Shown piece after piece: positions 3,665-19,103 of a stretch of 64,000 nucleotides of DNA. Where the stretch lies: IMG/VR virus record IMGVR_UViG_3300042691_008527, positions 9,888 to 73,887 of that record. One strand, written 5' to 3'. The first letter of the stretch is position 1, and each line of letters opens with the position of its first letter. The translations under genes were made by a program, and so were the position numbers. A model generated the notes under the pieces. It had not been told where the DNA came from. It did no database searches and was given only the letters and a program-made list of their open reading frames with translations. The stretch is from a virus.

Positions 3665-4999
3665 ATGTCAGAGTCAGTAGGTACGCTTTATCCAACACAG
3701 ATACCATCGCTTTCTGATGCTGCTGATATTCAAGAAGCTCTTAGGCTTTATCATTATGGCGCATATCCAGGCACAGATCCTGGAGAATATAATCCTACAA
3801 ACTCAAACCCAGCAAGCCTTGTATCAAGCTCAATAGCTGGAACATTTAATAGCTTACAAGGTCAAATTACAACTCTTTCTGGCAGCTTAGGTATTCAGCC
3901 TAGTACCCTAACCACTAAGGGAGATATTCTTGCTGCAACTGCTGCATCTACTGTAACACGTTTTGGTGTGGGAGCAAATGGAACGGTACTAACTGCAAAT
4001 AGTGCAACTGCTACTGGTTTAGAATGGGCTACCCCAGTTGTAACAAACTCAAGCACCAACACGTTTACTAATAAAACAATGAATAATTTTTCTGTTACAG
4101 CAGGATCAAGCATTCTTGATACCAACACAAATGAGCTTTTGACTTTCCCATCTTTAGTGGCATCAGCAGTTAATAATATACAAATAAATAATTCTGCTAC
4201 TGGCGTAGCCCCAAGCCTTCAATCAATTGGAAATGATACAAATGTTGGCTTTAATATTATAACTAAGGGTACTGGATTAGCTCAAGTAAACGGTGTTCCA
4301 ATTGCAACAACTACAGACTCTCAAACTTTAACAAACAAAACTTTAACATCACCTTTGATAACTCTTAGTACAACATCTTCTACAACTGATGCTAGAATTT
4401 CTTGGGACACTACAAATAAAAAGATTCAAGTTGGTGATGGAACATCTGCAACAGATTTTGCGTCATCGACATTGAGAACAAATGCTGCAACGCTTTCATC
4501 TAATAACTATACTATAGTTCTTGCTGATAAAGATAAAATGGTTGAAATAGATAATGGTGCCACTGCATCTACTGTTACCATTCCAGCAAATGCAACAACT
4601 GCATTTTTACCAGGAACTCAAATTAATATTATTCAAACTGGAACTGCACAAGTAACTATATTGCCAGCATCTATAACAACTGCAACATTTTCTTCTGGAG
4701 GAGCTGCAGCAGCTACTACTTTTGTTATATCTACGCCAAATGCTAGCATTGCAGTTGGTCAAAAAGTTACGGGTACTGGTTTTGCAGATAATACATATGT
4801 TACAAATGTTGCTGGAACGACAATAACAGTAAGCCCAGCAATATCTTCACAGGTATCTGGAACAGTTACATTTAGTGTTGGAGTTATGGGAACTCCTGGA
4901 CTTAAACTTAGATCACGATGGTCTTCTGCAACTCTTATTAAGCGACCAACAGCAGCTGGTGTAGATGCATGGGTAGCAATTGGAGACCTTAGTGCATGA
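3665..4999 (+). CDS. Tail fibre protein
   Basis: TTKGDILAAT..VGANGTVLTANSATATGLEW and QTLTNKTLTSP fibre repeats; C-terminal GLKLRSRWSSATLIKR..W..IGDL domain. Confidence 0.75.
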   Translation: MSESVGTLYPTQIPSLSDAADIQEALRLYHYGAYPGTDPGEYNPTNSNPASLVSSSIAGTFNSLQGQITTLSGSLGIQPSTLTTKGDILAATAASTVTRFGVGANGTVLTANSATATGLEWATPVVTNSSTNTFTNKTMNNFSVTAGSSILDTNTNELLTFPSLVASAVNNIQINNSATGVAPSLQSIGNDTNVGFNIITKGTGLAQVNGVPIATTTDSQTLTNKTLTSPLITLSTTSSTTDARISWDTTNKKIQVGDGTSATDFASSTLRTNAATLSSNNYTIVLADKDKMVEIDNGATASTVTIPANATTAFLPGTQINIIQTGTAQVTILPASITTATFSSGGAAAATTFVISTPNASIAVGQKVTGTGFADNTYVTNVAGTTITVSPAISSQVSGTVTFSVGVMGTPGLKLRSRWSSATLIKRPTAAGVDAWVAIGDLSA

Positions 5000-6285
5000 A
5001 AATAGGCAACTCTGCTTCTTCATTTTTAAACGCCAATACAGATAGTTTTAATAGGGCTAATGATCCTACATCTCTTGGAATTTCTGATCGTGGAATTAGG
5101 TGGGGTGCTGTAAGAGATACCTGGCAAGTACTAGACAATGAAGCATATTCTGCAGCAAATCAAGCCTCATATGCTTTGGCAGCTGGTAGTGTCGGTATAA
5201 ATAATATTAATTCTAGAATTGTAATACCAGACGGTACTTCTGGAGCAGGTTTGGCATTTTGGGTAGAAGATGCAAATAACTGGTATGGTGTATTCCCATA
5301 TTATAATCAAACAGGAACTGCTGGATGCTTTGGTAGTGTCGTATATAATAATTCTGGTGCTTGTGGTGGATGTCCTACTACTAGTTATAGCTATCAAGTA
5401 TGCGATGTTTATAGTACAGACACTTCTAGCGGTTGCTGTAGCGGCATAACTAATGTTGCATCATCTACATATTGTGCTGGACCTTCCATTACTGGTCCTA
5501 CATCAACTGGTGTAATTACACCCGCTGGATGTTGCCCTGGGACTGCAACAACGTCTACATCATCTACTTGTACAACTGGTGGAACTGGGAATGTTTGTAA
5601 TACTGAAACCACATATGTAGAGTCTTGTTCTGGAAGCCAGCTATTTTGTTATCATAGTGGTGGTGGATGTACGCCGTCTGGATGTGGTGGTTGCTATGTC
5701 TATGATAGTGGACAAACAACATACTATACTTCTACATGTTCATACTCTGGACAATTTGTTAGTGGCAATGCCCCAGGTTGCGGTACATTCGGTGATCAGT
5801 GTGATTTTCCAGGTCAAGTATTTTCATTAACATGTTATGCTAGATATTGTTTTCAGCCAGTATATGAGCCAGTATATACTTATTATTATACTACGCTATA
5901 CTATACTGTATCTTGTTCTCAAACACAATATACTAGCCCAGGATATTCATATTGCTATAAGCCAAGGACAGAGAGTGGATATTATTGTAATCCCTATACG
6001 ACTACAATAACTACTACCTATGCTTATAAAGTAATAAAGATGGTTTCTGGTGTAGTTACAGAAATAGCTACTGTAACAGTACCTTCTGCTATACTAGGAT
6101 TAAGGGCCCAAACAAATGGTACCTCAATAAATATAACTGCATATTCTGATGTTAATCTTTCTAACATTATTGGACAGAGTAGCTATTCTGAGCTTTCTGC
6201 TACAAGAGGTGTTGGAGTTGGGGTACTATATGCTCCAACGCTGTATAATGGTTCATCAGTGTTAGATAATTTTGGAGTGGAGTAA
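4996..6285 (+). CDS. Putative fibre-tip adhesin: beta-sandwich with 24-Cys insertion
   Basis: ATGA overlap with fibre gene; DSFNRAN..GLAFWVEDANNWY..LDNFGVE lectin-like scaffold; all 24 Cys lie in nt 5326-5988. Confidence 0.65.
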   Translation: MKIGNSASSFLNANTDSFNRANDPTSLGISDRGIRWGAVRDTWQVLDNEAYSAANQASYALAAGSVGINNINSRIVIPDGTSGAGLAFWVEDANNWYGVFPYYNQTGTAGCFGSVVYNNSGACGGCPTTSYSYQVCDVYSTDTSSGCCSGITNVASSTYCAGPSITGPTSTGVITPAGCCPGTATTSTSSTCTTGGTGNVCNTETTYVESCSGSQLFCYHSGGGCTPSGCGGCYVYDSGQTTYYTSTCSYSGQFVSGNAPGCGTFGDQCDFPGQVFSLTCYARYCFQPVYEPVYTYYYTTLYYTVSCSQTQYTSPGYSYCYKPRTESGYYCNPYTTTITTTYAYKVIKMVSGVVTEIATVTVPSAILGLRAQTNGTSINITAYSDVNLSNIIGQSSYSELSATRGVGVGVLYAPTLYNGSSVLDNFGVE

Positions 6286-7488: not shown

Positions 7489-8976
7489 ATGGCATCAGGC
7501 TTTACACCTACATATCTTATCCCTTATCCACTGCCTACAGATCCAGTCAATGTGGCTTCTGATATGGAAGAAATGGCTGATAGGTTAGAAACTTTATTCA
7601 CAAATACCGTTCAGCTATCTGCTGCCAATATATTTACAAATACAAATATTTTTAGTGTTAACTCTTCCTCTGCCGCAGTTAGAATTACACAGGTAGGATC
7701 AGGAAATGCCTTCCTCGTTGAAGATGATGCCAATCCAGACACTAGTGCTTTCGTTATTACAAATGCTGGAGATGTCGGTATTGGAAAGTTATCTCCACAA
7801 GAAAAAGTTGATGTAATAGGAAATATTAAACTAAGCGGTAATCTTATTTTTGAGGGTACTGATGATACTTATGAATTATCATTTGCATACACAGATCCGA
7901 CAGCAGATAGAACTATTACTCTGCCAGATGTAACAGGAACAGTTATAACAAATGGTAATTTGACAGATATTACTACAGTTGGTACTGTGATTGCTGGTTT
8001 GTGGAATGCATCAACTATTGGTGCAAATTATGGTGGCACTGGTATAAGTACATATTTAACTGGAGATATTTTATATTCTAGCTCAACCAATGTTTTGTCA
8101 AAGCTGGCTATTGGAACATCTGGACAGGTGTTAAGAGTTTCTTCTGGCGGTATACCAGAATGGGCAACAATTTCTGTATCTGCTGCAACACCCACCGTAG
8201 CTGGAACAGTATTTGGATATACAAATGCAGTTGGTGGAAATATTGGTCTTGGATATAGCGCTCTTGGTAGTCAGTCAGCATCAAATGATGAACATATAGC
8301 AATTGGATATGAGGCTCTTTCATCAATAACAAATACCGCATTTGCAGATGTTATGGTTGGATATAGGTCTGGATATGGTCTAACTACTGGCGATTATAAT
8401 ATCGGCATCGGAGGATTTAATTTTTGGGGAACAACTACTGGAAGCTATAATATAGCAATCGGTTACGAAACACTTCCAGCTTATGCAGTGGGAGGTTTAA
8501 CATCTAGTCATAACATATTTATTGGGCATACATCTGGATATAATGCTGCATCAACTATTGTTGACAATGTTTCTGTAGGTAACGGAAATTTGTATGCTTA
8601 TCAGGGAGCATATACGGTAGCTATTGGTAATGGAGCTCTTGCAGCAAGCACAACGGGGAATGAAAATACTGCAGTAGGATTTTATGCTGGAGGAGCGATA
8701 ACAACTGGTGCACAAAATACTCTTCTAGGATCACGAGCTGCCAATGATGGTGGTGGACCAAATATAGAGTTAACAACTGGATCTAACAATATTATTATTG
8801 GATATGAGTCTGCCCCTACCTCTTCATCTGTATCAAACGAAATAACTATCGGAAATGCATCTAATAATAGGTTTAGAGTTCCAGGCCTTGGTATTGATTG
8901 GACACCAGCAACAGTTCCTAGTGGATCTGGTGGAGGAGCTTCTCTTTCACAAGTTTTTATGTTGATGGGTGCATAG
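7489..8976 (+). CDS. Tail fibre with beta-roll repeats
   Basis: N-terminal TPTYLIPYP..D anchor; TADRTITLPD.TGT motif; repeated N(I/T)A(I/V)G(Y/F) units; ends VFMLMGA. Confidence 0.75.
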   Translation: MASGFTPTYLIPYPLPTDPVNVASDMEEMADRLETLFTNTVQLSAANIFTNTNIFSVNSSSAAVRITQVGSGNAFLVEDDANPDTSAFVITNAGDVGIGKLSPQEKVDVIGNIKLSGNLIFEGTDDTYELSFAYTDPTADRTITLPDVTGTVITNGNLTDITTVGTVIAGLWNASTIGANYGGTGISTYLTGDILYSSSTNVLSKLAIGTSGQVLRVSSGGIPEWATISVSAATPTVAGTVFGYTNAVGGNIGLGYSALGSQSASNDEHIAIGYEALSSITNTAFADVMVGYRSGYGLTTGDYNIGIGGFNFWGTTTGSYNIAIGYETLPAYAVGGLTSSHNIFIGHTSGYNAASTIVDNVSVGNGNLYAYQGAYTVAIGNGALAASTTGNENTAVGFYAGGAITTGAQNTLLGSRAANDGGGPNIELTTGSNNIIIGYESAPTSSSVSNEITIGNASNNRFRVPGLGIDWTPATVPSGSGGGASLSQVFMLMGA

Positions 8977-9000: not shown

Positions 9001-9240
9001 ATGTCTGAAGAAATTTTAACAAAGATTGTAGTTGATTGTTCTACTGGAGAACAAAAGGTGGTTCCTCTTACCCCAGCAGAAATTGCACAGAGGGATCAAG
9101 ATGCAGCTGCATTTGCAGAAGCAGAAGCTGCACGAAAAGCAGAGGAAGATAGAATTGCTGCTCTTAAAGAGTCAGCCAAAAAGAAACTAATTGCGGGAAC
9201 AAAGCTTACTGCTGAAGAAGCAGAAGTATTGGTAATTTAA
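9001..9240 (+). CDS. Putative fibre assembly chaperone
   Basis: AGGAGG SD; KIVVDCSTGEQ..PLT..EIAQR followed by a charged helix. Confidence 0.55.
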   Translation: MSEEILTKIVVDCSTGEQKVVPLTPAEIAQRDQDAAAFAEAEAARKAEEDRIAALKESAKKKLIAGTKLTAEEAEVLVI

Positions 9241-9250
9241 GGAGAATATA

Positions 9251-9634
9251 ATGGCACACTTTGCAGAAGTAGACGAAAATAATATTGTTACTCGTGTACT
9301 AGTTGTTGGAGATGATCAAGAGCATCGTGGACATGACTTTCTTGCTAATGACCTTGGTCTTGGCGGTACATGGATTAAAACTTCATACAATACATTAGCT
9401 GGACAACATACTAAGGGTGGAACACCACTTAGATATAATTATGCTGGTATTGGTTATACTTGGGATCCAGGGTTTGGTGAAGATGGAGCATTTATTCCAC
9501 CAAAGCCTTTTGATTCTTGGCTACTTGATAATAATACTGCAACATGGAATCCACCAGTTGCTTATCCAAATGATGGAAAGCTTTATAGTTGGAATGAAAA
9601 AGACGGTACTTGGGATGAGGTTGTAGCAGAGTAA
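9251..9634 (+). CDS. Putative chaperone/partner of Gly-rich adhesins
   Basis: MAHFAEVDENNIV..WIKTSYN..RYNYAGIGYTWD..FIPPKPF.SW..Y.W.E pattern. Confidence 0.6.
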   Translation: MAHFAEVDENNIVTRVLVVGDDQEHRGHDFLANDLGLGGTWIKTSYNTLAGQHTKGGTPLRYNYAGIGYTWDPGFGEDGAFIPPKPFDSWLLDNNTATWNPPVAYPNDGKLYSWNEKDGTWDEVVAE

Positions 9635-9996
9635 TGGCAACAGCATACAAGGTATTAGGACAAACTGGATCATCTGGAAATTTTGGTAATGGTGCACAAA
9701 CATTAACAGCTAATACAAATACAAATGTTTACACAGTTCCAGCAGCAACAGAAACAGTTGTTTCTACTATCACGGTATGCAATCAGGCATCTACTGCAGC
9801 TACTTTTAGAATTGCTGTAAGACCAGATGGTGCTGCTATTGCAACGCAACACTATCTTGCGTATGATACCCCAATTGCTGCAAACGATACTGTTGGCTTA
9901 ACACTTGGTATTACAATAAATGCTGCTGATATTATTACAGTTTATGCTTCTGCAGCAACAATGTCATTCTCAGTCTTCGGCTCTGAAACAACGTAA
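9634..9996 (+). CDS. Small beta-sandwich virion adaptor
   Basis: MATAYKVLGQ..YTVPA..STITVCN..SFSVFGSE; TAATG coupling. Confidence 0.6.
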   Translation: MATAYKVLGQTGSSGNFGNGAQTLTANTNTNVYTVPAATETVVSTITVCNQASTAATFRIAVRPDGAAIATQHYLAYDTPIAANDTVGLTLGITINAADIITVYASAATMSFSVFGSETT

Positions 9997-10008: not shown

Positions 10009-10596
10009 ATGTCAGTTAGCAGATTTTCCCAATCATCTTTACAAAATGGTTTTGAAAAATTTAATACCATTTGGGATGGAAAAACTGCTGTTGGCTCAAT
10101 GGAAGCCATCAGTTCTGTTACTTTGTCTAGTACTCTTGGATCTGTTAGCTTTAATAATATACCGCAAACATATCAACACTTAGAGCTTAGGACAATGGCT
10201 CTTGGAAGTAGCTCAAATCAGGATATTTTAATTAGATTTGGGTCTTCATCAACCATAGACTCAGGATCTAATTATTCTTGGCACGAACTTCGTGGAACTG
10301 GAACAAATCCTGTATCATCTACTGCAACTCCAAATGCATCTGCATTATATGTTTCATCTAATGCTATAGATTCAGCATTTCCAGATATTTCTATACTTAG
10401 TATTGTAGACTATTCAAATATAAATAAATATAAAACTCTCAGGGTTTTACGTGGTGGAGATAGAAATGGTAGCGGTACCATGGGTATCTTCAGTGGTAAT
10501 TGGAGAAGCTTTAATGCAATAGATAGTCTATTAATATATGTATCTGGTGGAAGCTTTAATGCAAATTCAACCTTTTCTTTATATGGGATTAAATAA
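10009..10596 (+). CDS. Cassette 1 subunit A (IPQTY beta domain with N-terminal peptide)
   Basis: F.NIPQTY.HL..R ... STFSLYGIK; paralog of 13339..13932. Confidence 0.7.
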   Translation: MSVSRFSQSSLQNGFEKFNTIWDGKTAVGSMEAISSVTLSSTLGSVSFNNIPQTYQHLELRTMALGSSSNQDILIRFGSSSTIDSGSNYSWHELRGTGTNPVSSTATPNASALYVSSNAIDSAFPDISILSIVDYSNINKYKTLRVLRGGDRNGSGTMGIFSGNWRSFNAIDSLLIYVSGGSFNANSTFSLYGIK

Positions 10597-11966
10597 TGCC
10601 TACATATACACCAATACAATCTATCACAACATCTTCAGTATCAACTGAGGTAAACTTTTCTAACATTCCTCAAACTTATCAAGATTTAGTTATTGTTGCT
10701 TCAATGAAAGGAACTACTGGCACTAACTCTGGAGTTGGTCTTCAGTTTAATGGAGACACCTCATCTCTATATTCGTTTACATATGCTCAGGGAACTGGAT
10801 CAGCAGCAGAAACTGCTAGATTGGCAAACTCATCTAGTATAAATGTTGGTCCAGGAAATGCTGGAATACCAACTGCAAGTAATACTTTTGGTCCATCTGT
10901 TTTTAGTATTCAAAACTATTCGAATACAACAACAAATAAAGCAGTTATGCATAGAGGAAACAATTCAGCCAATATGGTTGGTTTATTGACTGGACTATGG
11001 AGGTCAACCTCTGCAATAACAAGTATAAGATTATTCATTTATGCTGGAAATTTTGATTCTGGATGTACTTTTGATCTTTATGGAATATCGCCAGTTGCAG
11101 CACAAGCAACAAAAGCATCTGGTGGCACAGAGATATATTATGATTCAACATATGCTTACCACGTATTTAAGGGATCTGGAATTTTTACACCAAACCAATC
11201 ATTAAGTGCTGATATTTTAGTAATAGCTGGTGGAGGTGGAGGAGCTGGAGGAGGTGGAGGAGCTGGAGGACTTCTTGAATGGCAGTCTTGGCCCCTTACG
11301 GCACAAAGTTATCCTGTTGTGGTCGGTGCTGGAGGTCCTGGAGGAACAGATACCTTGCAGGGAGGAAATGGTCAAGACTCTCAATTTGGAACATTAGTTT
11401 TAGCAGGAACATATCCTCGTGGAGGTGGAGGTGGTGGTGCTATAACCACAAATCTTAGTGGTATTACTGGAGGTTCTGGAGGTGGAGGTGGGCCAGCAGA
11501 TCTAAGTGCTGGTTCTGGAGGAAGTGGTTTAGCTCCTGGACAAGGCAATTCTGGCGGTACGGCATTTCAAAGACAAGCAGGAAATGGCGGTGGCGGCGGT
11601 GGAGGTGGTTGTGGAAACCAACCTAGTGGAAGTGCTGGTGGTGTAGGAACTGGTGGAACTGCAACATCTGGTGCTGCTGGAAATGGAGGTAGAGGAGCAT
11701 TATATTACTCTTCATGGGGAGCCGTTACTAATACTGGACATAACGTAGGTGGAACATATTATTATTGTGGTGGTGGAGGCGGTGGATCAAACCTTGCAAC
11801 TCGTGGTACTGGTGGTCTTGGCGGTGGAGGAGATGGATATAAGCAAACAGGTCCAGTGCTTGGATCAAGTGGTATGACAAATACAGGAGGCGGTGGTGGC
11901 GCAGGATGGAACACTACTGGATATAATGGTGGTTCTGGTCTTGTAATTGTGAGGTATCCAAAATGA
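10596..11966 (+). CDS. Cassette 1 subunit B: IPQTY domain plus Gly-rich adhesin domain
   Basis: IPQTYQDL..IQNYSNTTTNK..LYGI then LVIAGGGGG..GGSGLVIVRY. Confidence 0.7.
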   Translation: MPTYTPIQSITTSSVSTEVNFSNIPQTYQDLVIVASMKGTTGTNSGVGLQFNGDTSSLYSFTYAQGTGSAAETARLANSSSINVGPGNAGIPTASNTFGPSVFSIQNYSNTTTNKAVMHRGNNSANMVGLLTGLWRSTSAITSIRLFIYAGNFDSGCTFDLYGISPVAAQATKASGGTEIYYDSTYAYHVFKGSGIFTPNQSLSADILVIAGGGGGAGGGGGAGGLLEWQSWPLTAQSYPVVVGAGGPGGTDTLQGGNGQDSQFGTLVLAGTYPRGGGGGGAITTNLSGITGGSGGGGGPADLSAGSGGSGLAPGQGNSGGTAFQRQAGNGGGGGGGGCGNQPSGSAGGVGTGGTATSGAAGNGGRGALYYSSWGAVTNTGHNVGGTYYYCGGGGGGSNLATRGTGGLGGGGDGYKQTGPVLGSSGMTNTGGGGGAGWNTTGYNGGSGLVIVRYPK

Positions 11967-13303
11967 GTATAGAAACAATGACAAAGCTTTCTTCATATAC
12001 GGTTGGTGTTGGAGGCATATCAGCTATTGATTTTATAAATATACCACAAGAATATACTGATCTTAAAATTGTTATAAGTGGAAGAACTGACGAATCAAGT
12101 GATCGCTCTGTTCCGTATGTTTATTTTAATAGTGATACTTCTGCAACAACAAACTATTCATATAGAAGGCTTTATGGTATAGCATCAATAGCTACAAGTT
12201 CTGACAATGGAGCAGGAGTTATTGGTGGATATATTTCTGGTGCAACTGCTACGGCAGGAGTATTTGGAAATTTAGAATTTTATATTCCTAATTATAGTCA
12301 ATATATGCAAAAAAGTATTACATCAGACGGAGTATCTGAAACTAACGCTTCTCCAGCAGGAATAGCCATAACAGCATCTTTATGGAATCAGGTAGCGCCA
12401 ATAACATCTATAAAAATATATGCTGGACTAAACACATCTATAAAGTTTGTTCAACATTCTACTGCTACATTATATGGAGTAAAAAATGCTCGTGCTACTG
12501 CAGGTAATTCAATAAAAGCAACAGGTGGATCAATTAGTTTTGATGGTACATATGTTTATCATACTTTTAATAATAGTGGTAGTTTTATACCTACAGCTGG
12601 ACTAACTATTGATTATTTAGTTGTTGCTGGCGGTGGGGGTGGAGCAAATGGCGGTGGTGGTGCAGGTGGTTTTAGAACATCTGCTGGAACTTCTGGTGCT
12701 AACTCTGCTTCAGAGTCAAAACTATCTTTATTTGCAAATACCCCATATACAGTTACAATTGGCGCAGGTGGAGCACCAGTTGCTTGGGCTAATAGCGGAA
12801 ATGATGGAAACAATTCTGCTTTTAGCACTATAAGTTCTTTAGGTGGTGGAGGTGGTGGTGGTCCAAATGCAGCTGGTAGAAATGGTGGTTCTGGCGGTGG
12901 AGCTGGAAATATTGCAGCGGGTGGTGCACCAGCTGCTGGAAATGGAACTGCTAATCAAGGCTTAGGCGGTGGTGGTGCAGTAAGTAATGGAAATAATCAA
13001 AGCGGAGGAGGTGGCGGCGGCGGAGCAAGTGTTGCTGGAGCTAGTTTTGGCTCTGGTGGTGCTGGTGGAGCTGGACTTGCTTCCACTATCAGTGGACGTT
13101 CTATAGTATATGCTGGTGGTGGCGGTGCAGCAAATATTGCTGGTGCTGGTGGTTCTGGTGGAGGTGGTGCTGGTGGTAGTGGTACTAATGGCGCTGGAAT
13201 AAATGGAACTGCTAATACTGGTGGTGGGGGTGGAGGCTCTATTTTTGGTACGCATGGTGCGGGTGGATCTGGAGTAGTAATTATTCGTTACTTAGCACAA
13301 TGA
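11963..13303 (+). CDS. Cassette 1 subunit C: IPQ domain plus Gly-rich adhesin domain
   Basis: VGVGG..IPQEYTDL..EFYIPNY..LYGV then YLVVAGGGGG..GGSGVVIIRY. Confidence 0.7.
   Translation: MSIETMTKLSSYTVGVGGISAIDFINIPQEYTDLKIVISGRTDESSDRSVPYVYFNSDTSATTNYSYRRLYGIASIATSSDNGAGVIGGYISGATATAGVFGNLEFYIPNYSQYMQKSITSDGVSETNASPAGIAITASLWNQVAPITSIKIYAGLNTSIKFVQHSTATLYGVKNARATAGNSIKATGGSISFDGTYVYHTFNNSGSFIPTAGLTIDYLVVAGGGGGANGGGGAGGFRTSAGTSGANSASESKLSLFANTPYTVTIGAGGAPVAWANSGNDGNNSAFSTISSLGGGGGGGPNAAGRNGGSGGGAGNIAAGGAPAAGNGTANQGLGGGGAVSNGNNQSGGGGGGGASVAGASFGSGGAGGAGLASTISGRSIVYAGGGGAANIAGAGGSGGGGAGGSGTNGAGINGTANTGGGGGGSIFGTHGAGGSGVVIIRYLAQ
13204..13236 (+). repeat. 33-nt exact direct repeat, copy 1
   Basis: TGGAACTGCTAATACTGGTGGTGGGGGTGGAGG, identical to 16519-16551. 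Confidence 0.9.
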
Positions 13304-13309
13304 TATAAT
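13301..13309 (+). promoter_or_regulatory. Extended -10 promoter (TGA-TATAAT) for cassette 2
   Basis: Overlaps stop codon of 11963..13303; upstream of AGGAG SD and GTG 13339. Confidence 0.6.
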
Positions 13310-13338
13310 AGACATGAAATACTTACTAGGAGAAAAAA

Positions 13339-13932
13339 GTGGCATTTAGAAATCTAAGCACATCAAGTATCTTCACTGGTGTTAAAACTAGTAAGCTATG
13401 GGATCAAACCACTTTTCCAGGTACTTTTGAAAGTATACAGACTGTTTATTTAGCTAGTGCTCAAAGTACTATTTCTTTTACTAATATACCCCAGACTTAT
13501 TCACATTTACAAATTAGAGTACTATCTCGTGACAATAGAGCAGCTACTGCTAATAGTGTTTTTTATCGTATTAATGGAGATACAGGTTCTAATTATTCCT
13601 ACCATATTCTTGCTGGAGATGGTTCAAATACTAGTGCTGGTGCAGCAAGTTCCACTACTTTTACTTATGGAATGATACAAACATCAGCCAGCACAACTTC
13701 TAATATATTTACCGCTGGTATTATAGATATACTTGATTATTCAAACACAAATAAAAATACTACAATTAGAACTCTTCAGGGTTATGATTCTAATGGTAGC
13801 GGTCATATAAGGTTAAATTCTGGTCTTTGGATGAATACTGCTGCTGTAACCTCATTTTTAATTTATGCTGATGCTAGCGCTAATTTTGTAGCAAATTCAC
13901 ATTTTGCGTTATATGGAATTAGGAGCGCATAA
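13339..13932 (+). CDS. Cassette 2 subunit A
   Basis: FTNIPQTYSHLQIR..DYSNTNKNTTIRTLQGYDSNGSG..FALYGI. Confidence 0.7.
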   Translation: MAFRNLSTSSIFTGVKTSKLWDQTTFPGTFESIQTVYLASAQSTISFTNIPQTYSHLQIRVLSRDNRAATANSVFYRINGDTGSNYSYHILAGDGSNTSAGAASSTTFTYGMIQTSASTTSNIFTAGIIDILDYSNTNKNTTIRTLQGYDSNGSGHIRLNSGLWMNTAAVTSFLIYADASANFVANSHFALYGIRSA

Positions 13933-15254
13933 TGCCAGCAGGAGAAACATATATAAAACTTAGGTCTACTACGCTGAGTAGCACTGCTTCATCTGTGGTT
14001 TTTTCTAACATCCCACAAACATTTACAGACCTTATCATAGTATTCAATGGAACTTTGAGTTCTGGAACAAGCGTTTATGGATTGCGATACAATTCAGATA
14101 GTTCAGGCCTTTATTCTTGGACTTCGCTTCGTGGTGATGGATCTGCCGCAAGTAGTGCAAGAGACACCAACTCTTCTCGAATTTTATGTGGATGGATTGG
14201 AACAAGTCAAGTAACTGAAATAATACAGATTCAAAATTATTCAAATAGCACAACGAATAAAACAAACATTACCCGCAACAATTCAACTGTTGCAAGCACT
14301 TATGTTTCCGCAAACGTTGGTCTATGGAGAAACACTGCTGCAATTACGTCTGTAACTTTATTGCCAGATAGCAGCACGTTTGCCTCTGGCTCTACCTTTA
14401 CGCTCTACGGCATAGCAGCATCTGCTTCACCACAAGCATCTGGTGGAACTATTACAACTGATGGAACATATTGGATACATACATTTACAAGTTCTGGAGT
14501 TTTTACCCCAATAAATGGTTTACAGGATGTTGACTATATGGTTCTTGCTGGTGGAGGCGGAGGAGCAGCAGGTGGTGGTGGTGCGGGGGGTTTACGCTCT
14601 ACTGTAACAGCTTCTGGAAGAGGGTCTTCAGTTGAGTCAAGAATAAATTTAAGCCCTGGATCTTATGTTGTAACTGTAGGGGCTGGCGGTAACGGTAACA
14701 ATTCTTATAGCGGTGGTGCTGCTACTAAAGCAGGTGACAATGGTAGTGATTCAGTATTTGCAAGCATTACATCTTTAGGCGGCGGCGGTGGTGGTTCTGC
14801 TGGAAATAATTCTTTCCCATATGTAGCAAAGAACGGTGGTTGTGGTGGTGGCGCCTCTTATTCATCAGGAACTGCAAATAGAGGTTTAGGAACAGCTGGA
14901 CAAGGATATGATGGTGGTGCAGATACTATTGATGCAGCACCTTACCCTGGTCCTGGCGGTGGTGGTACTGGTCAAGATGGTCAAAGTCCACCAAACTCAA
15001 GCACTGCTGGAGCTGGTGGTAATGGAACCGCAGTAGCTATAAGTGGTTCATCTGTAACTTATGGTGGCGGTGGCGGAGGCGGCGTTTATGGAGGTGGCAG
15101 CGGTGGTGCTGGAGGATCAGGTGGTGGAGGAAGTTTTAGTAATCCAGGAGGAAATGGAACAGTTAATCTTGGCGGAGGTGGAGGAGGTACAGTAAATAAT
15201 GCTGTTGGAGGTAATGGTGGAAGCGGTATTGTAATTGTGAGGTATCCACGATAA
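13932..15254 (+). CDS. Cassette 2 subunit B with Gly-rich domain
   Basis: IPQTFTDL..IQNYSNSTTNK..GSTFTLYGI then Gly-rich domain ending GGSGIVIVRY. Confidence 0.7.
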   Translation: MPAGETYIKLRSTTLSSTASSVVFSNIPQTFTDLIIVFNGTLSSGTSVYGLRYNSDSSGLYSWTSLRGDGSAASSARDTNSSRILCGWIGTSQVTEIIQIQNYSNSTTNKTNITRNNSTVASTYVSANVGLWRNTAAITSVTLLPDSSTFASGSTFTLYGIAASASPQASGGTITTDGTYWIHTFTSSGVFTPINGLQDVDYMVLAGGGGGAAGGGGAGGLRSTVTASGRGSSVESRINLSPGSYVVTVGAGGNGNNSYSGGAATKAGDNGSDSVFASITSLGGGGGGSAGNNSFPYVAKNGGCGGGASYSSGTANRGLGTAGQGYDGGADTIDAAPYPGPGGGGTGQDGQSPPNSSTAGAGGNGTAVAISGSSVTYGGGGGGGVYGGGSGGAGGSGGGGSFSNPGGNGTVNLGGGGGGTVNNAVGGNGGSGIVIVRYPR

Positions 15255-16624
15255 TGGCTAAAACATATAAAGCATTACAGACTGTTGTTGTAGGAGCAGG
15301 AGGTGCTGCAAGCATTAATTTTACAAACATTCCACAGAACTATGATGATCTTATTATAAAACATAGTCTTAGATCTAATCATGCACAAATTTATGAATAT
15401 TGTGGGGTAAGGTTTAATAGTAACAGTTCATCAATTTATAGTCTTAAAAATCTTCGTGGTAATGGCTCTACCGTAATTAGTCAAACTCTTACCAATCAGA
15501 CAAGATTTGAGTTTGAAATGGCGGAAGGAAATACAGCAACATCAAACACATTTAGTAATGGTGAGTTTTATATCCCAAATTATAGAGGAAGTGCAAATAA
15601 GTCTGTAAGTTCTGAATCGGTCCAAGAAACAAATGCCACCCTTGCTTATTCTGCTATGGATGCTGGAATCTGGGCAAGCACTGCAGCAATTACAGATATT
15701 CAAATTTTTCCTACTGTTGGAACTTTATGGAATCAATATTCTATGGCTACTCTCTATGGCGTAGGTGGTGCTCGTGCAACTGGTGGTACTATAACTGCTG
15801 ATGGATTATATACATATCATACTTTTACATCAAGTGGAGCTTTTATACCTCTTGAAAATATAGAAGGAATTGATTATCTTGTTGTTGCAGGTGGTGGAGG
15901 CGGAGCTGGATGGTACGGTGGCGGAGGTGGAGCTGGAGGTCTTAGATCTAGTAGAGTAAGAACTGGTGGTGGGGGATCAGTTCAAAATCAAATTAATGCT
16001 ATTGCTGGAACAACATATTCGGTAACTGTTGGTTCTGGAGGTGCATCTCAAACAAATGGAAATAACTCTATATTTGCTAATGTAATGTCTACTGGAGGAG
16101 GACGTGGTGGAAGCTATCAGTCTAATGCTCCTGGTGGTAACGGAGGTTCTGGAGGAGGTGGTGGTGCTGGTAATGCTGTAGGTGGTGTTTGGCTTCCAGG
16201 AGGAACTGGAACTGCAAATGAAGGATATGGCGGTGGTACTGGACATGCATCTAATGCTGGTGCTCCAGGAGGCGGTGGTGCAGGTGCTGCTGCTAGTAAT
16301 GCACCAGCTTCTCCAAATGGAACTGCTACAGATGGTGGCATAGGTGTTGAGCTTGCTGTTTTTGCTAATCCAACAGGAACTGGCTCTAATAATTATTATG
16401 CAGGTGGTGGAGGTGGTGGCTCTACTGTTGGCGGTGGTAATGGAGTATATGCTGGAGTTGGCGGTCTTGGTGGTGGAGGCGCTGGCTCTCTTGTTGCAAA
16501 CAGTGGAACTGGTGTGGCTGGAACTGCTAATACTGGTGGTGGGGGTGGAGGATCTGCCTACAATGTAAACTCTGGTGGAGCTGGTGGATCTGGTATAGTA
16601 ATTGTTAGATATCCAAACACTTGA
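15254..16624 (+). CDS. Cassette 2 subunit C with Gly-rich domain
   Basis: VGAGG..IPQNYDDL..EFYIPNY..LYGV then Gly-rich domain ending GGSGIVIVRY. Confidence 0.7.
   Translation: MAKTYKALQTVVVGAGGAASINFTNIPQNYDDLIIKHSLRSNHAQIYEYCGVRFNSNSSSIYSLKNLRGNGSTVISQTLTNQTRFEFEMAEGNTATSNTFSNGEFYIPNYRGSANKSVSSESVQETNATLAYSAMDAGIWASTAAITDIQIFPTVGTLWNQYSMATLYGVGGARATGGTITADGLYTYHTFTSSGAFIPLENIEGIDYLVVAGGGGGAGWYGGGGGAGGLRSSRVRTGGGGSVQNQINAIAGTTYSVTVGSGGASQTNGNNSIFANVMSTGGGRGGSYQSNAPGGNGGSGGGGGAGNAVGGVWLPGGTGTANEGYGGGTGHASNAGAPGGGGAGAAASNAPASPNGTATDGGIGVELAVFANPTGTGSNNYYAGGGGGGSTVGGGNGVYAGVGGLGGGGAGSLVANSGTGVAGTANTGGGGGGSAYNVNSGGAGGSGIVIVRYPNT
16519..16551 (+). repeat. 33-nt exact direct repeat, copy 2
   Basis: Identical to 13204-13236. 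Confidence 0.9.
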
Positions 16625-16649
16625 CAATAAATAATCTTAATGCTACAAT
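16621..16649 (+). promoter_or_regulatory. Consensus promoter TTGACA-17-TACAAT
   Basis: Has TG extension; upstream of AAGGAG SD and ATG 16671. Confidence 0.75.
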
Positions 16650-16934: not shown

Positions 16935-16970
16935 CCTATACCTATACAAAAGGTATAGGCTTTAGTTTTT
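16935..16970 (+). terminator. Intrinsic terminator
   Basis: CCTATACCT / AGGTATAGG stem followed by CTTTAGTTTTT. Confidence 0.7.
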
Positions 16971-17072: not shown

Positions 17073-19103
17073 ATGTCAGAGTTCTTTTCTTTTCGTTTGC
17101 TAGATGAGTTTGTTTCAAAATATGAATCAACTCCCGCCCCATTTGGTTTTGCCGATGCAGGGGGTAACTCTTTAGGAGAAATTACGTTTATTCGTACATA
17201 TTCTCGTGTAAAGGAGGATGGCACAAAGGAAAAATGGCATGAGGTATGTCGTCGTGTTATTGAAGGCATGTATTCAGTTCAAAAAAATCACGCTAAAGAA
17301 AATCGTTTGCCTTGGAATGATAATAAGGCTCAGAAGTCTGCTCAGGAAGCCTATGATCGTATGTTTAATCTTAAGTGGACTCCCCCAGGTCGTGGCCTAT
17401 GGGCATTTGGTACCCCTATGACAATGGAGAAGCGTAACTCTGCTTCTCTACAAAACTGCGCTATGGTCTCTACTCGTGACCTTGATAGAAATGATCCAGG
17501 GGCATTATTTGCTTGGGTTATGGATGCTTTAATGCTTGGTATTGGTGTTGGGTTTGATACTGTTGGTCAGGATAAGGATCTTCTTATCTATGCCCCCACA
17601 GAACCAGCGGTAGTGTATGAAATCCCAGACACAAGAGAAGGATGGGTAGAAGCAACAAGACTGCTTATAAACTCATTTTTAAGGCAAAATCAGCCTATAC
17701 AGGATTTTGACTATAGCCTTATCCGACCCATGGGTGCCCCAATTAAGGGCTTCGGAGGCGTTGCAAGCGGTCCACAACCACTCATTGACCTCCATACACG
17801 GATTCGTAAAGTTATTGGCTCCAGAGCTGGAGAAAAGCTAGACTCTCGTGCAATTGTTGATATCGTAAATCTTATTGGAACATGTGTTGTTTCTGGAAAT
17901 GTTCGTAGATCAGCAACTCTTGCTTTAGGTGCTGCTGGCGATGATGCATTTATTAATCTTAAGAATGCAGAAATATTCCCAGATCGTAACTCGTTTGATC
18001 CAGAAAATCCAGGGTGGGCATGGATGTCAAATAATTCTATCTCTGCTACTGTAGGAACAAAGTATGAAGACTATGTTGATCTTATTGCAAATAATGGAGA
18101 GCCAGGTTTTATTTGGCTTGATGTTGCTCGTAATTTTGGTCGCCTTGCAGATCCAGCAGATGGAAAAGACTATCGTGTTATGGGATTCAACCCATGTGCT
18201 GAACAGCCACTAGAATCATATGAGCTTTGTACTCTAGTTGAGGTTCATCTTAATAGGCATGACTCAAAAGAAGACTTTCTACGAACATTAAAATTTGCAT
18301 ATTTGTATGGCAAGACGGTAACTCTTATGCCTACACACTGGCCTACAACAAATGGCATTATGCAGCGCAATCGTCGTATTGGAACATCTCTTACTGGTAT
18401 TGCATCTTTTGCAGATACCCACGGTATGCCAACGACTCGTGAATGGATGGATGAGGGATATAAGACCATCCGTAAATACGATCACTCATATTCTGAGTGG
18501 CTTTGTGTTCGTGAATCAATTCGTGTTACAACCGTAAAGCCATCTGGCTCTGTCTCAATTCTTTCTGGTGCTACCCCTGGAGTTCACTGGGGACCTGGAG
18601 GAAACTACTTCCTTCGTGCCATTAGATTTGGTGATGCAGATCCTATGCTTCATTTATTTAAAGCCGCAGGGTACAAGATTGAAAAAGATCTAGTATCTGC
18701 CAATACTCAAGTAGTATATTTCCCAGTAGCATCTGGACATCCAAGATCAGAAAAAGATGTAAGCCTATTTGAAAAAATTGGTCTTGCTGCCAGCACACAA
18801 AAATATTGGTCAGATAATGGTGTTTCTGTCACATTATCTTTTGATAAAGAAACAGAGACTAAGCACATTGCTCCAGCTCTTCATATGTACGAAGGGCAGC
18901 TAAAAGCAGTTTCATTCTTGCCAATGGGCAACACTGTTTATCCTCAGCAACCATATACTCAAATTACAAAAGAAGAGTATGAGTCATATATCGGAAAGAT
19001 TGCAAAGATTAATTTTAATGCAATTTACGACGGTGTTGAAAATCTTGAGGCTCAGGGAGAAATGTACTGCACTACAGATGCATGTGAGATAAAAATATCT
19101 TAA
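17073..19103 (+). CDS. nrdJ: Class II (adenosylcobalamin-dependent) ribonucleotide reductase, monomeric RTPR type
   Basis: PPGRGLW, GNVRRSA, NPCAE active-site loop, TTVKPSGSVS, C-terminal CTTDAC. Confidence 0.92.
   Translation: MSEFFSFRLLDEFVSKYESTPAPFGFADAGGNSLGEITFIRTYSRVKEDGTKEKWHEVCRRVIEGMYSVQKNHAKENRLPWNDNKAQKSAQEAYDRMFNLKWTPPGRGLWAFGTPMTMEKRNSASLQNCAMVSTRDLDRNDPGALFAWVMDALMLGIGVGFDTVGQDKDLLIYAPTEPAVVYEIPDTREGWVEATRLLINSFLRQNQPIQDFDYSLIRPMGAPIKGFGGVASGPQPLIDLHTRIRKVIGSRAGEKLDSRAIVDIVNLIGTCVVSGNVRRSATLALGAAGDDAFINLKNAEIFPDRNSFDPENPGWAWMSNNSISATVGTKYEDYVDLIANNGEPGFIWLDVARNFGRLADPADGKDYRVMGFNPCAEQPLESYELCTLVEVHLNRHDSKEDFLRTLKFAYLYGKTVTLMPTHWPTTNGIMQRNRRIGTSLTGIASFADTHGMPTTREWMDEGYKTIRKYDHSYSEWLCVRESIRVTTVKPSGSVSILSGATPGVHWGPGGNYFLRAIRFGDADPMLHLFKAAGYKIEKDLVSANTQVVYFPVASGHPRSEKDVSLFEKIGLAASTQKYWSDNGVSVTLSFDKETETKHIAPALHMYEGQLKAVSFLPMGNTVYPQQPYTQITKEEYESYIGKIAKINFNAIYDGVENLEAQGEMYCTTDACEIKIS

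Follow-up and report, generated by a model that had tools for sequence, protein, structure and literature searches.

The window, a 64,000-nt stretch of DNA, comes from an uncultured freshwater siphophage in which a set of three genes (A, B and C) is present in duplicate. Six co-directional open reading frames were identified on the + strand between positions 10009 and 16624, in the order A1 B1 C1 A2 B2 C2 and with a period of 3330 nt from A1 to A2. These genes and the features around them are as follows:

9001..9240, + strand: 79-aa helical protein (..KIVVDCSTGE..LTPAEIAQR..), profile match 1.6e-31
9634..9996, + strand: beta-rich protein of 120 aa encoded just ahead of A1, with PHROG matches to phrog_11338 and phrog_1276 (tail-fibre families)
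10009..10596, + strand: A1, 195 aa; N-terminal peptide of residues 1-27 (10009-10089) and subtype-A beta-sandwich domain (10090-10590)
10596..11966, + strand: B1, 456 aa; subtype-B domain (10596-11087) and Gly_rich_2 head (about 11103-11963), matching PF21722 (6e-11) and phrog_2295
11963..13303, + strand: C1, 446 aa; subtype-C domain (11972-12481) and Gly_rich_2 head (12581-13291), matching PF21722 (5e-14)
13301..13309, + strand: TGATATAAT, a perfect extended -10-like motif seen in the sequence at the opening of the C1/A2 gap; putative
13339..13932, + strand: A2, 197 aa, GTG start; N-terminal peptide (13339-13416) and subtype-A domain (13417-13920)
13932..15254, + strand: B2, 440 aa; subtype-B domain (13932-14414) and Gly_rich_2 head (14493-15245), matching PF21722 (8e-21)
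15254..16624, + strand: C2, 456 aa; subtype-C domain (15260-15763) and Gly_rich_2 head (15833-16612), matching PF21722 (4e-10)
16621..16649, + strand: strong promoter-like site at the end of C2 (TTGACA-17-TACAAT with TG, 11/12 matches)

The original prediction of six genes with a common domain of about 165 aa, arranged A-B-C twice with a period of about 3.3 kb, was confirmed in full by the open reading frame list and the alignment. The gene overlaps which it described within the trios were present at all four junctions, as TAATG at A1/B1, A2/B2 and B2/C2 and as ATGA at B1/C1, while C1 and A2 were set apart by a gap of 35 nt. Translational coupling within each trio is supported by these overlaps, as read from the sequence, and was counted in favour of a mixed trimer. 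The second cassette had also been credited with a promoter of its own, which was not upheld; a consensus promoter scan gave no sigma-70-type site between C1 and A2 and did not call TGATATAAT, leaving only this putative motif, and an AGGAG lies 9 nt ahead of the A2 GTG start. The promoter-like site at 16621..16649 would mark the end of the cassette operon.

Homologues of the 120-aa protein upstream of A1 were found in 27 related loci, and its gene was located immediately 5' of A in 17 of 69; it is possible that this protein forms a stalk or socket for the trio. A 'socket' domain common to it and either the C-terminus of the 3665-4999 product or 7489-8976 was considered, and BLASTP showed no similarity. 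The 79-aa protein at 9001..9240 lies upstream of the cassettes in the window, whereas in 39 of 65 loci a homologue directly follows C; the 79-aa protein encoded after C2 (16671-16910) was compared with this family of about 75 aa, usual after C, and found to be unrelated. In this contig the trio module is separated from the genes for the tape measure and minor tail proteins, and stalk-like genes were observed upstream of the trio both here and in related loci. From this neighbourhood the trio products would be expected in the virion.

Alignment of the six copies of the common N-terminal domain identified F..NIPQ....L, G, I..Y, W and LYG as invariant, and a search of the whole genome returned exactly six copies (E 1e-11 to 1e-125). 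The subtype signatures were kept between the cassettes, as had been predicted, and were also recovered across 162 non-redundant trios: H-L-Q-x-R and D-x-L-D-Y-x-N-T-N-K...R.L.G.D.N in A (88-97% conserved), N-Y-S-N-T-T-T-x-K in B, and V-G-x-G-G and E-x-Y-I-P-N-Y in C. The N-terminal extension of about 26 aa was, again as predicted, exclusive to A, and in related loci only A has N-terminal extensions or FN3 domains.

No Pfam model was matched at E 0.1 or better by A1, A2 or the N-terminal parts of B and C, and neither A1 nor A2 had a PHROG match. Profile searches of the PDB returned nothing at E up to 10 for A2 and nothing at E up to 0.01 for full-length B2, and none of 50,697 phage records was matched when the region was compared with them by Megablast. 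A profile search with the domain recovered 40,150 cluster representatives (clusters at 50% identity), none of them named; database homologues of similar length numbered 3774 for A2, with a further set of 4441. Two phage proteins have a distant homologue of the domain in single copy, placed at the C-terminus or close to it: a 'tail fiber protein' of Erythrobacter phage L02, and Streptomyces phage Intolerant gp29, whose gene lies beside minor tail genes. Because these single-copy relatives lie inside fibre proteins, the ancestral state was probably homotrimeric. A single-protein scan of bacterial genomes matched one short contig, from a Lake Mendota Brevundimonas MAG; with this as the lone bacterial match, no host can be named.

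The context of the trio was read in IMG/VR loci using subtype HMMs applied blind to position. Among 201 viral loci the order ABC was found in 144, ABCABC in 14 and ABCABCABC in 4, the remainder being mostly contig-end fragments, together with a divergent 'AAC' variant in about ten loci. A tree of the domains, named beforehand as a check, grouped by subtype and not by cassette, with 10 subtype changes compared to a mean of 111.5 for shuffled labels, and A and C formed clades (99*). A1 and A2 were each closer to orthologues in other phages than to each other (L015_A1 being the nearest to A1). The A, B and C subtypes are thus placed by the tree as paralogues that appear to have diverged anciently.

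The C-terminal halves of B1, C1, B2 and C2 matched PF21722 (Gly_rich_2) at 40.4-75.5 bits (gathering score 24.3), with no match in A1 or A2. Matches of B and C to phrog_2295 (E 5e-33 to 7e-63), a family without known function, covered part of the N-terminal domain as well as the head. In related loci a tail longer than 150 aa was carried by none of 76 A proteins, by 16 of 77 B proteins and by 21 of 77 C proteins; each trio had 0, 1 or 2 heads, on B or C only and always C-terminal, in keeping with the predicted restriction of Gly-rich heads to these two subunits, for which no end of the protein had been specified. The AF2 model of B2 (pLDDT 92) was matched by Foldseek to 7ypx_A (Pam3 fibre; E 1.9e-4) and 9d93_Q (Bxb1 tail tip; E 1.7e-4), both with a probability of 1.00 and 21-23% identity. 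On these profile and model matches the heads belong to the receptor-binding modules of the Pam3 gp24 type (TNF-like/polyglycine). The four heads of this phage are 46-54% identical to one another. Most relatives have headless B and C proteins, made of the domain alone (about 165 aa) with no more than 3 residues at either end. The core is therefore not chiefly there to display two different adhesins, as originally suggested, and the heads are an optional addition.

Fusions were surveyed among the 150 best representatives of the 40,150. In A-B and B-C fusions the linkers were 0-13 aa long, while every one of the 20 C-A fusions had a spacer of about 90 aa, called as fn3 by Pfam in loci L054 and L058. 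This set also included 32 compact single chains of three domains (about 505-550 aa), in which the D1, D2 and D3 clades were position-specific, as well as one six-domain and one eleven-domain chain. The domain family was also found embedded in giant multi-domain chains of 1100-2100 aa.

Prediction of an A-B-C trimer had been proposed as a check, and a complex of A2, B2 (1-165) and C2 (1-174) was modelled. The ABC model, with C2 as the partner chain, scored well above its controls (ipSAE 0.92, best of 3 controls 0.01), but near relatives of a true partner are also passed by this measure, which does not distinguish homotrimers from heterotrimers. In the calibration, 58 of 80 solved complexes attained this ipSAE mark, as did 2 of 110 mismatched pairs; the counts apply roughly here, as the model had its own alignments and three chains. 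The runs agreed in at least 93% of contacts, with partner pLDDT of at least 93, and in the compact model C contacted both A and B (about 260-320 contacts). The modelled interface holds the strands which bear the subtype signatures (A 130-142; C 36-38 and 98-102). APC-corrected mutual information between the paralogues of the 162 non-redundant trios gave top pairs that were not enriched in the modelled interface; the six strongest pairs fell in N-terminal strands modelled between subunits, for which co-inheritance of the cassette could be just as good an explanation. Nor was there enrichment at this interface of concerted identity in the same column among the paralogues (p 0.32).

In the AF2 model of A2 (pLDDT 89) residues 1-28 were of low confidence and residues 30-194 formed a 12-strand sandwich. 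Foldseek of this domain against the PDB returned nothing at E 0.001 or better, and the VIA matches were weak, all with Z scores under 8, a level that the tool calls common. The best was to a GH32 C-terminal domain (Z 7.6), with galectins and legume lectins at Z about 6; these lectin-type sandwiches are not trimeric, and they score equal to or above the TNF/C1q-type trimers (Z 5.3-7.2), which comprised the Pgp3 C-terminal domain (Z 7.2) and C1q, collagen VIII NC1, GITRL, Cbln1, EDA and BclA (Z 5.3-5.9). The fold of the phage 1358 receptor-binding protein was not among the A2 matches listed.

Taken together, we consider it reasonably probable that each A-B-C trio forms one 1:1:1 pseudo-threefold knob, tethered through A to a fibre or stalk of the siphophage, on which the B and C heads are optional. 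The three domains of about 165 aa would pack side by side in a single mixed knob. A would be the sole tether, through its N-terminal peptide of about 26 aa or, in relatives, through FN3 spacers or covalent fusion to the product of the preceding gene, and would hold the knob on the virion by way of a short fibre or stalk. B and C could each bear one C-terminal head, which would probably contact the host surface. This phage would then have two knobs with four different heads, and so several distinct binding surfaces on asymmetric tips. The genes with their domains and subtypes, the recurring trio, the fusions and the family of the heads are results of the analysis, while we infer the 1:1:1 assembly, A as the anchor, the location on the virion and receptor binding. 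Of the obligate 1:1:1 heterotrimer originally predicted, the mixed trio is favoured by the ABC model, the ordered trios and the fusion linkers, but 'obligate' goes beyond a model that does not discriminate homotrimers; similarly, A alone was found to carry anchoring extensions, while its function as the anchor is a proposal.

The same genes could instead encode separate A3, B3 and C3 homotrimers, acting as different tips or as stacked layers of a fibre and encoded together since they work jointly, which we regard as unlikely although it is the best placed of the alternatives. The trimeric folds nearest to the domain (the Pgp3 C-terminal domain, C1q-family heads, collagen VIII NC1 and the HFTV1 trimeric fibre) are mostly homotrimeric (PMC12494034), as is the Pam3 gp24 head (PMC9608196), and the single-copy homologues lie within ordinary fibre proteins; the inability of the complex score to tell cousins from true partners, and covariation without interface enrichment, also leave room for homotrimers. 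Against this, the bare B and C domains of most phages would have no tether of their own, and the copies always make up complete ordered trios. Unlike domains are set adjacent by the very short A-B and B-C linkers and by the compact three-domain chains, and the need for an FN3 spacer in fusions from C to the following A would be unexpected under a simple stacking of layers.

Still less probable is that the products are independent, monomeric, lectin-like carbohydrate-binding sandwiches which decorate the particle or fibre without forming a definite oligomer. Monomeric sandwiches of the lectin type do provide the best structural matches of A2, but a strict ordered trio whose subtypes are conserved over deep divergence argues against free monomers, as do invariant subtype-specific residues on strands modelled between subunits and a complex score that is high relative to controls. 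That the trio is no part of the virion, but an assembly chaperone set or non-structural factor for neighbouring fibres, is very improbable; small helical proteins resembling assembly factors accompany it and the tail genes of this contig are at a distance from it, but the domain is fused to receptor-binding Gly_rich_2 heads and FN3 spacers, occurs inside annotated tail-fibre proteins and is embedded in giant chains.

A wider reading of the mixed knob is put forward more tentatively, at somewhat less than even chances: that the domain represents a very large undescribed class of modular symmetry-breaking tips, with obligate A:B:C composition, a single tether, chaining through FN3 or docking peptides, 0-2 different polyglycine heads, and a three-in-one solution arisen at least twice. 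The two origins would be the three genes (A/B/C) and the three tandem domains (D1/D2/D3). In work on tailed phages, receptor-binding proteins are nearly always taken to be homotrimers, an assumption that also underlies host-range prediction and engineering. If the proposal is correct, many aquatic phages use asymmetric tips, built by a very abundant uncharacterised family of ordered unlike trios; specificity would be spread over three genes, with optional heads on two subunits and a tether on one, and one tip could show up to three non-equivalent binding faces. As it occurs as one gene, as three genes and as a single chain of three domains, the family provides a natural system for the change from homotrimer to obligate heterotrimer, and the trio could serve as a scaffold presenting two different binders in fixed geometry.

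Several known systems resemble parts of this arrangement. Pam3 gp24 (PDB 7ypx; PMC9608196) and Bxb1 9d93_Q share the Pfam family PF21722 with the C-terminal halves of B and C, and the gp24 module combines a TNF-like sandwich, a polyglycine lattice and variable distal loops (PMC9608196). Pam3 gp24, however, is homotrimeric, docks through an alpha-helical shaft and has a trimeric chaperone, whereas here the heads sit one each on different subunits of the core, with none on A. The S16/T2 gp38 adhesin also places a polyglycine-lattice head with variable loops at a non-trimeric fibre tip (PMC9608196), but as a single monomer on the trimeric gp37 tip, with no trio core and with another N-terminal attachment domain. 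The C1q globular head is a heterotrimeric jelly-roll knob of three paralogous chains (A, B and C) whose genes are clustered, and C1q-family heads were among the structural neighbours (5hzf, Z 5.9; 6z6v, Z 5.3) at scores in the range of chance arrangements; it differs in having three collagen stalks, one per chain, rather than a single tether, and shows no sequence similarity to the larger domain described here (165 aa compared to about 130).

A three-gene design is seen in the tripartite tail of virophage DSLV2 (PMC12724248), in which three consecutive paralogous genes, conserved in the lineage, give one heterotrimeric receptor-binding fibre; its gp37/tail-collar-like fibres are of another fold and family, without sequence or Pfam relation to the present domain. 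A further parallel, from its description and gene arrangement, is ORF60-ORF61-ORF62 of the Mycobacterium abscessus siphophage Jabs, a mixed trimer seen by cryo-EM on the adhesion device, for which a receptor-binding role was proposed and a fold likened to the phage 1358 receptor-binding protein (bioRxiv 10.64898/2026.07.24.740622). Both systems have three consecutive paralogous beta-sandwich genes (the Jabs domains being of about 180-200 aa) and short N-terminal segments, which are anchors in Jabs and a putative tether here. In Jabs, N-terminal peptides anchor ORF61 and ORF62 and a C-terminal double sandwich anchors ORF60, whereas here the putative tether is on A only; the Jabs trio is without polyglycine heads, and tandem cassettes are not described there. 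The contrast originally drawn with the usual homotrimeric receptor-binding proteins thus applies to the mixed trio proposed here, but this trio would join Jabs ORF60-61-62 and DSLV2, which are already heterotrimeric three-gene modules.

The virus, a linear IMG/VR record of 73.9 kb with an estimated completeness of 68%, is a siphophage on the evidence of its gene content: TerL, a portal, a major-capsid-like protein, a protease, a minor tail protein and a tape measure protein of 2091 amino acids, together with DnaB, a primase, UvsX, a DNA polymerase and a class II-like ribonucleotide reductase (RNR). The fibre and tip module occupies positions 1-16.6 kb and includes six co-directional genes, arranged as two trios (cassettes 1 and 2) of three subtypes, A, B and C:

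10009-10596, + strand, A1, 195 amino acids
10596-11966, + strand, B1, 456 amino acids
11963-13303, + strand, C1, 446 amino acids
13339-13932, + strand, A2, 197 amino acids
13932-15254, + strand, B2, 440 amino acids
15254-16624, + strand, C2, 456 amino acids

Gene calls and alignment agreed with the original observation of six genes with one shared domain and overlapping junctions: all six proteins contain a domain of ~165 amino acids (F.NIPQ.Y..L ... LYG[IV]), genes within each trio are joined by TAATG or ATGA overlaps, and a 35-nt gap separates the trios. A whole-genome search found exactly these six copies of the domain. Domain identity was 41% for A1/A2, 47% for B1/B2 and 41% for C1/C2, compared to about 27-39% between subtypes. 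In this phage an N-terminal extension (~26 amino acids) is present on A only, and a Gly-rich continuation, or head (~280 amino acids, Pfam PF21722, Gly_rich_2), on B and C only. Two more Gly_rich_2 proteins, 44-985 and 1888-2739, lack the trio domain and are free-standing heads with short N-terminal peptides, so that, with the four on the trios, 16.6 kb of this phage encode six polyglycine heads. C1 (13204-13236) and C2 (16519-16551) share, at equivalent positions, a 33-nt perfect repeat that encodes GTANTGGGGGG, although their heads are about 54% identical outside it; B1 and B2 share a 20-nt perfect repeat (..VIVRYP) at 11941 and 15229; these may reflect short gene conversion tracts or nucleotide-level constraint.

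IMG/VR scans yielded 200 related loci, to which subtype HMMs were applied blind to position. The architecture was ABC in 144 loci, ABCABC in 14 and ABCABCABC in 4, with a divergent 'AAC' variant in about ten; most remaining loci were contig-end fragments (AB, BC, A, C, ABCA and similar). The subtype signatures originally proposed were 85-100% conserved across 162 non-redundant trios and, as had been suggested as a check, domains grouped by subtype, with 10 label changes on a 236-domain tree (minimum 2, shuffled mean 111.5); A and C were clades at 99 on a second tree. On the 236-domain tree A1 and A2 were closer to orthologues from other phages than to each other, which argues that the two cassettes are old and distinct and not a recent tandem duplication. 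Judged from these sequences, the trio is a conserved unit and not a local duplication. The observation is confirmed and is far broader than could be seen in the one genome from which it was made.

A 1:1:1 heterotrimer, as originally predicted, is the best-supported reading of the trio and one we consider rather probable; the ABC model passes its controls, although the support is computational throughout. A2, B2 (residues 1-165) and C2 (residues 1-174) were modelled with a separate alignment per chain, giving an ipSAE of 0.92 compared to 0.01 for the best of three controls, although close cousins of the true partner also pass. In a calibration made on pairs and with other alignments, and so only roughly applicable here, 58 of 80 solved complexes reached the same mark, as did 2 of 110 mismatched pairs. 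Contact agreement across runs was at least 93%, with partner pLDDT of at least 93. In the model C contacts both A and B (roughly 260-320 residue pairs), and the interface takes in the signature strands of A (130-142, DILDYSNTNK) and of C (36-38 and 98-102) as well as the G.G loops of B (66-73) and C (67-76). Neither covariation nor same-column concerted change between paralogues was enriched at the modelled interface; the strongest covarying pairs fall in N-terminal strands modelled between subunits, a result which co-inheritance could also give.

In fusions found among the 150 best representatives, linkers of 0-13 residues connect A to B and B to C, while all 20 C-A fusions had a ~90-residue spacer, as would be expected with A, B and C adjoining in one knob and C-to-A' joining two knobs. 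In the fusion proteins L054:5902-7194 and L058:7236-8537 (loci from other contigs) the spacer is an FN3 domain; gene order there is A, B, C-FN3-A', B', C', so that the first trio is covalently tied to the second. The same 150 included 32 compact single chains (about 505-550 amino acids) of three abutting domain copies, D1, D2 and D3, which formed position-specific groups outside A, B and C on the second tree, suggesting an independent three-in-one solution. Tandem copies were also found in giant single chains (cluster representatives P0241, 2087 amino acids, 6 copies; P0246, 1131 amino acids, 6 copies; P0248, 2147 amino acids, 11 copies), and fibre-sized chains of 1100-1700 amino acids (P0254, P0286, P0292, P0346 and P0349) carry exactly three mid-chain.

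Across related loci a tether was found on A only, a further point in favour of the mixed trimer; it takes the form of a peptide, of a fusion or of one to three FN3 domains. In the A proteins L033:7095-8525 and L060:5-1408 two or three FN3 domains replace the N-terminal peptide. Heads were found on B, C, both or neither, but never on A. Display of two adhesins, the role originally proposed, agrees with what is seen in this phage. It is not what the core does in general, as most trios are headless, B and C in most phages being bare domains of 160-175 amino acids. The N-terminal peptide found most often on A shows good conservation (M-x-[IV]-R-[RK]-[FL]-S-T-S-S-[IL]..G.K.SK[LF]WDQ.T). When the peptides of A1 (10009-10089) and A2 (13339-13416) were compared with the tip proteins 44-985, 1888-2739 and 4996-6285, which have unrelated folds, Ser-rich S-x-S-[SA]-[FLI]-like N-termini were found on these also, and may represent a common docking peptide.

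The gene directly upstream of A (69 loci) usually encodes a short stalk-like protein: a homologue of 9634-9996 in 17/69 loci, a protein built of the ~100 amino acid repeat of 3665-4999 in 19/69 and a homologue of 1277-1879 in 5/69. Downstream of C, 39 of 65 loci encode a helical protein of ~75 amino acids homologous to 9001-9240 (e.g. L007:9559-9777; ..KIVVDCSTGE..LT.EEIAQREADAAA..LGLTAEEIAAL), which has no family in Pfam or PHROG and is a candidate connector or assembly factor of the trio, and 8/65 a phrog_7759 protein homologous to 9251-9634. A 676 amino acid RNR-like gene (17073-19103) lies between the fibre module and portal; in the related loci L059 and L078 the trio is directly followed by a ~600 amino acid protein, then the portal.

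The promoter originally assigned to cassette 2 was not recovered, as a consensus scan called no site in the C1/A2 gap. On inspection, the gap was seen to open with a perfect extended -10, TGATATAAT (13301-13309), and cassette 2 may be transcribed separately. The very end of C2 (16621-16649) holds a promoter-like site close to consensus (TTGACA-17-TACAAT with TG). A small gene comes next, and between it and the RNR gene, just ahead of the latter, is a terminator-like hairpin (16935-16959).

The A2 model (pLDDT 89) is a 12-strand beta-sandwich following a low-confidence peptide. Foldseek gave no match for A2 at E 0.001 or better. VIA matches included GH32 C-terminal sandwiches (Z 7.6), chlamydial Pgp3 in its TNF-like C-terminal domain (Z 7.2), the trimeric HFTV1 tail fibre, also in its C-terminal domain (Z 6.9), galectins and legume lectins (Z about 6) and heads of the C1q and TNF families (Z 5.3-5.9). 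These searches were not decisive; the fold is a sandwich of jelly-roll or lectin type, and its affiliation is uncertain.

Searches with A2 and B2 returned 3774 (similar-length) and 4441 homologues, respectively, all unnamed, and the B-domain profile matched 40,150 representatives of 50% clusters with a cut-off of E 0.001, of which 30,315 also passed a cut-off of E 1e-10. The domain is covered by no Pfam family, no PDB chain was related by sequence, PHROG matched phrog_2295 (function unknown) alone, and ESM Atlas neighbours were hypothetical viral proteins throughout. Cultured phages yielded two distant, single-copy relatives: one near the C-terminus of a 999 amino acid 'tail fiber protein' of Erythrobacter phage vB_EliS-L02, and one that forms the C-terminal end of gp29 in Streptomyces phage Intolerant, where the gene adjoins minor tail genes. 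The sole match in 185,579 species genomes (L209, NZ_JBIIAY010000257.1) is a contig of 3.4 kb that was binned with a Brevundimonas MAG from Lake Mendota and is probably a piece of a phage genome. A freshwater habitat is suggested by the many IMG/VR relatives that come from samples with neighbouring numbers.

In the literature found, there is no description of the domain family, its size, its strict gene order, its chained and single-chain versions or its optional polyglycine heads. The concept itself is not new, as reports from 2025-2026 describe receptor-binding modules made of three mixed paralogues. The B2 model (pLDDT 92) matches, through its C-terminal half, a Bxb1 tail-tip chain and the Pam3 tail fibre gp24. 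In Pam3 this half is a TNF-like domain, with loops that build a polyglycine lattice ending in variable distal tips, and a role in receptor recognition has been proposed for it (PMC9608196). ORF60-61-62 of phage Jabs are, like A-B-C, three consecutive beta-sandwich paralogues; a heterotrimer of these, with N-terminal segments as its anchors, was seen by cryo-EM (bioRxiv 10.64898/2026.07.24.740622) and is a precedent for the mixed trimer predicted here.
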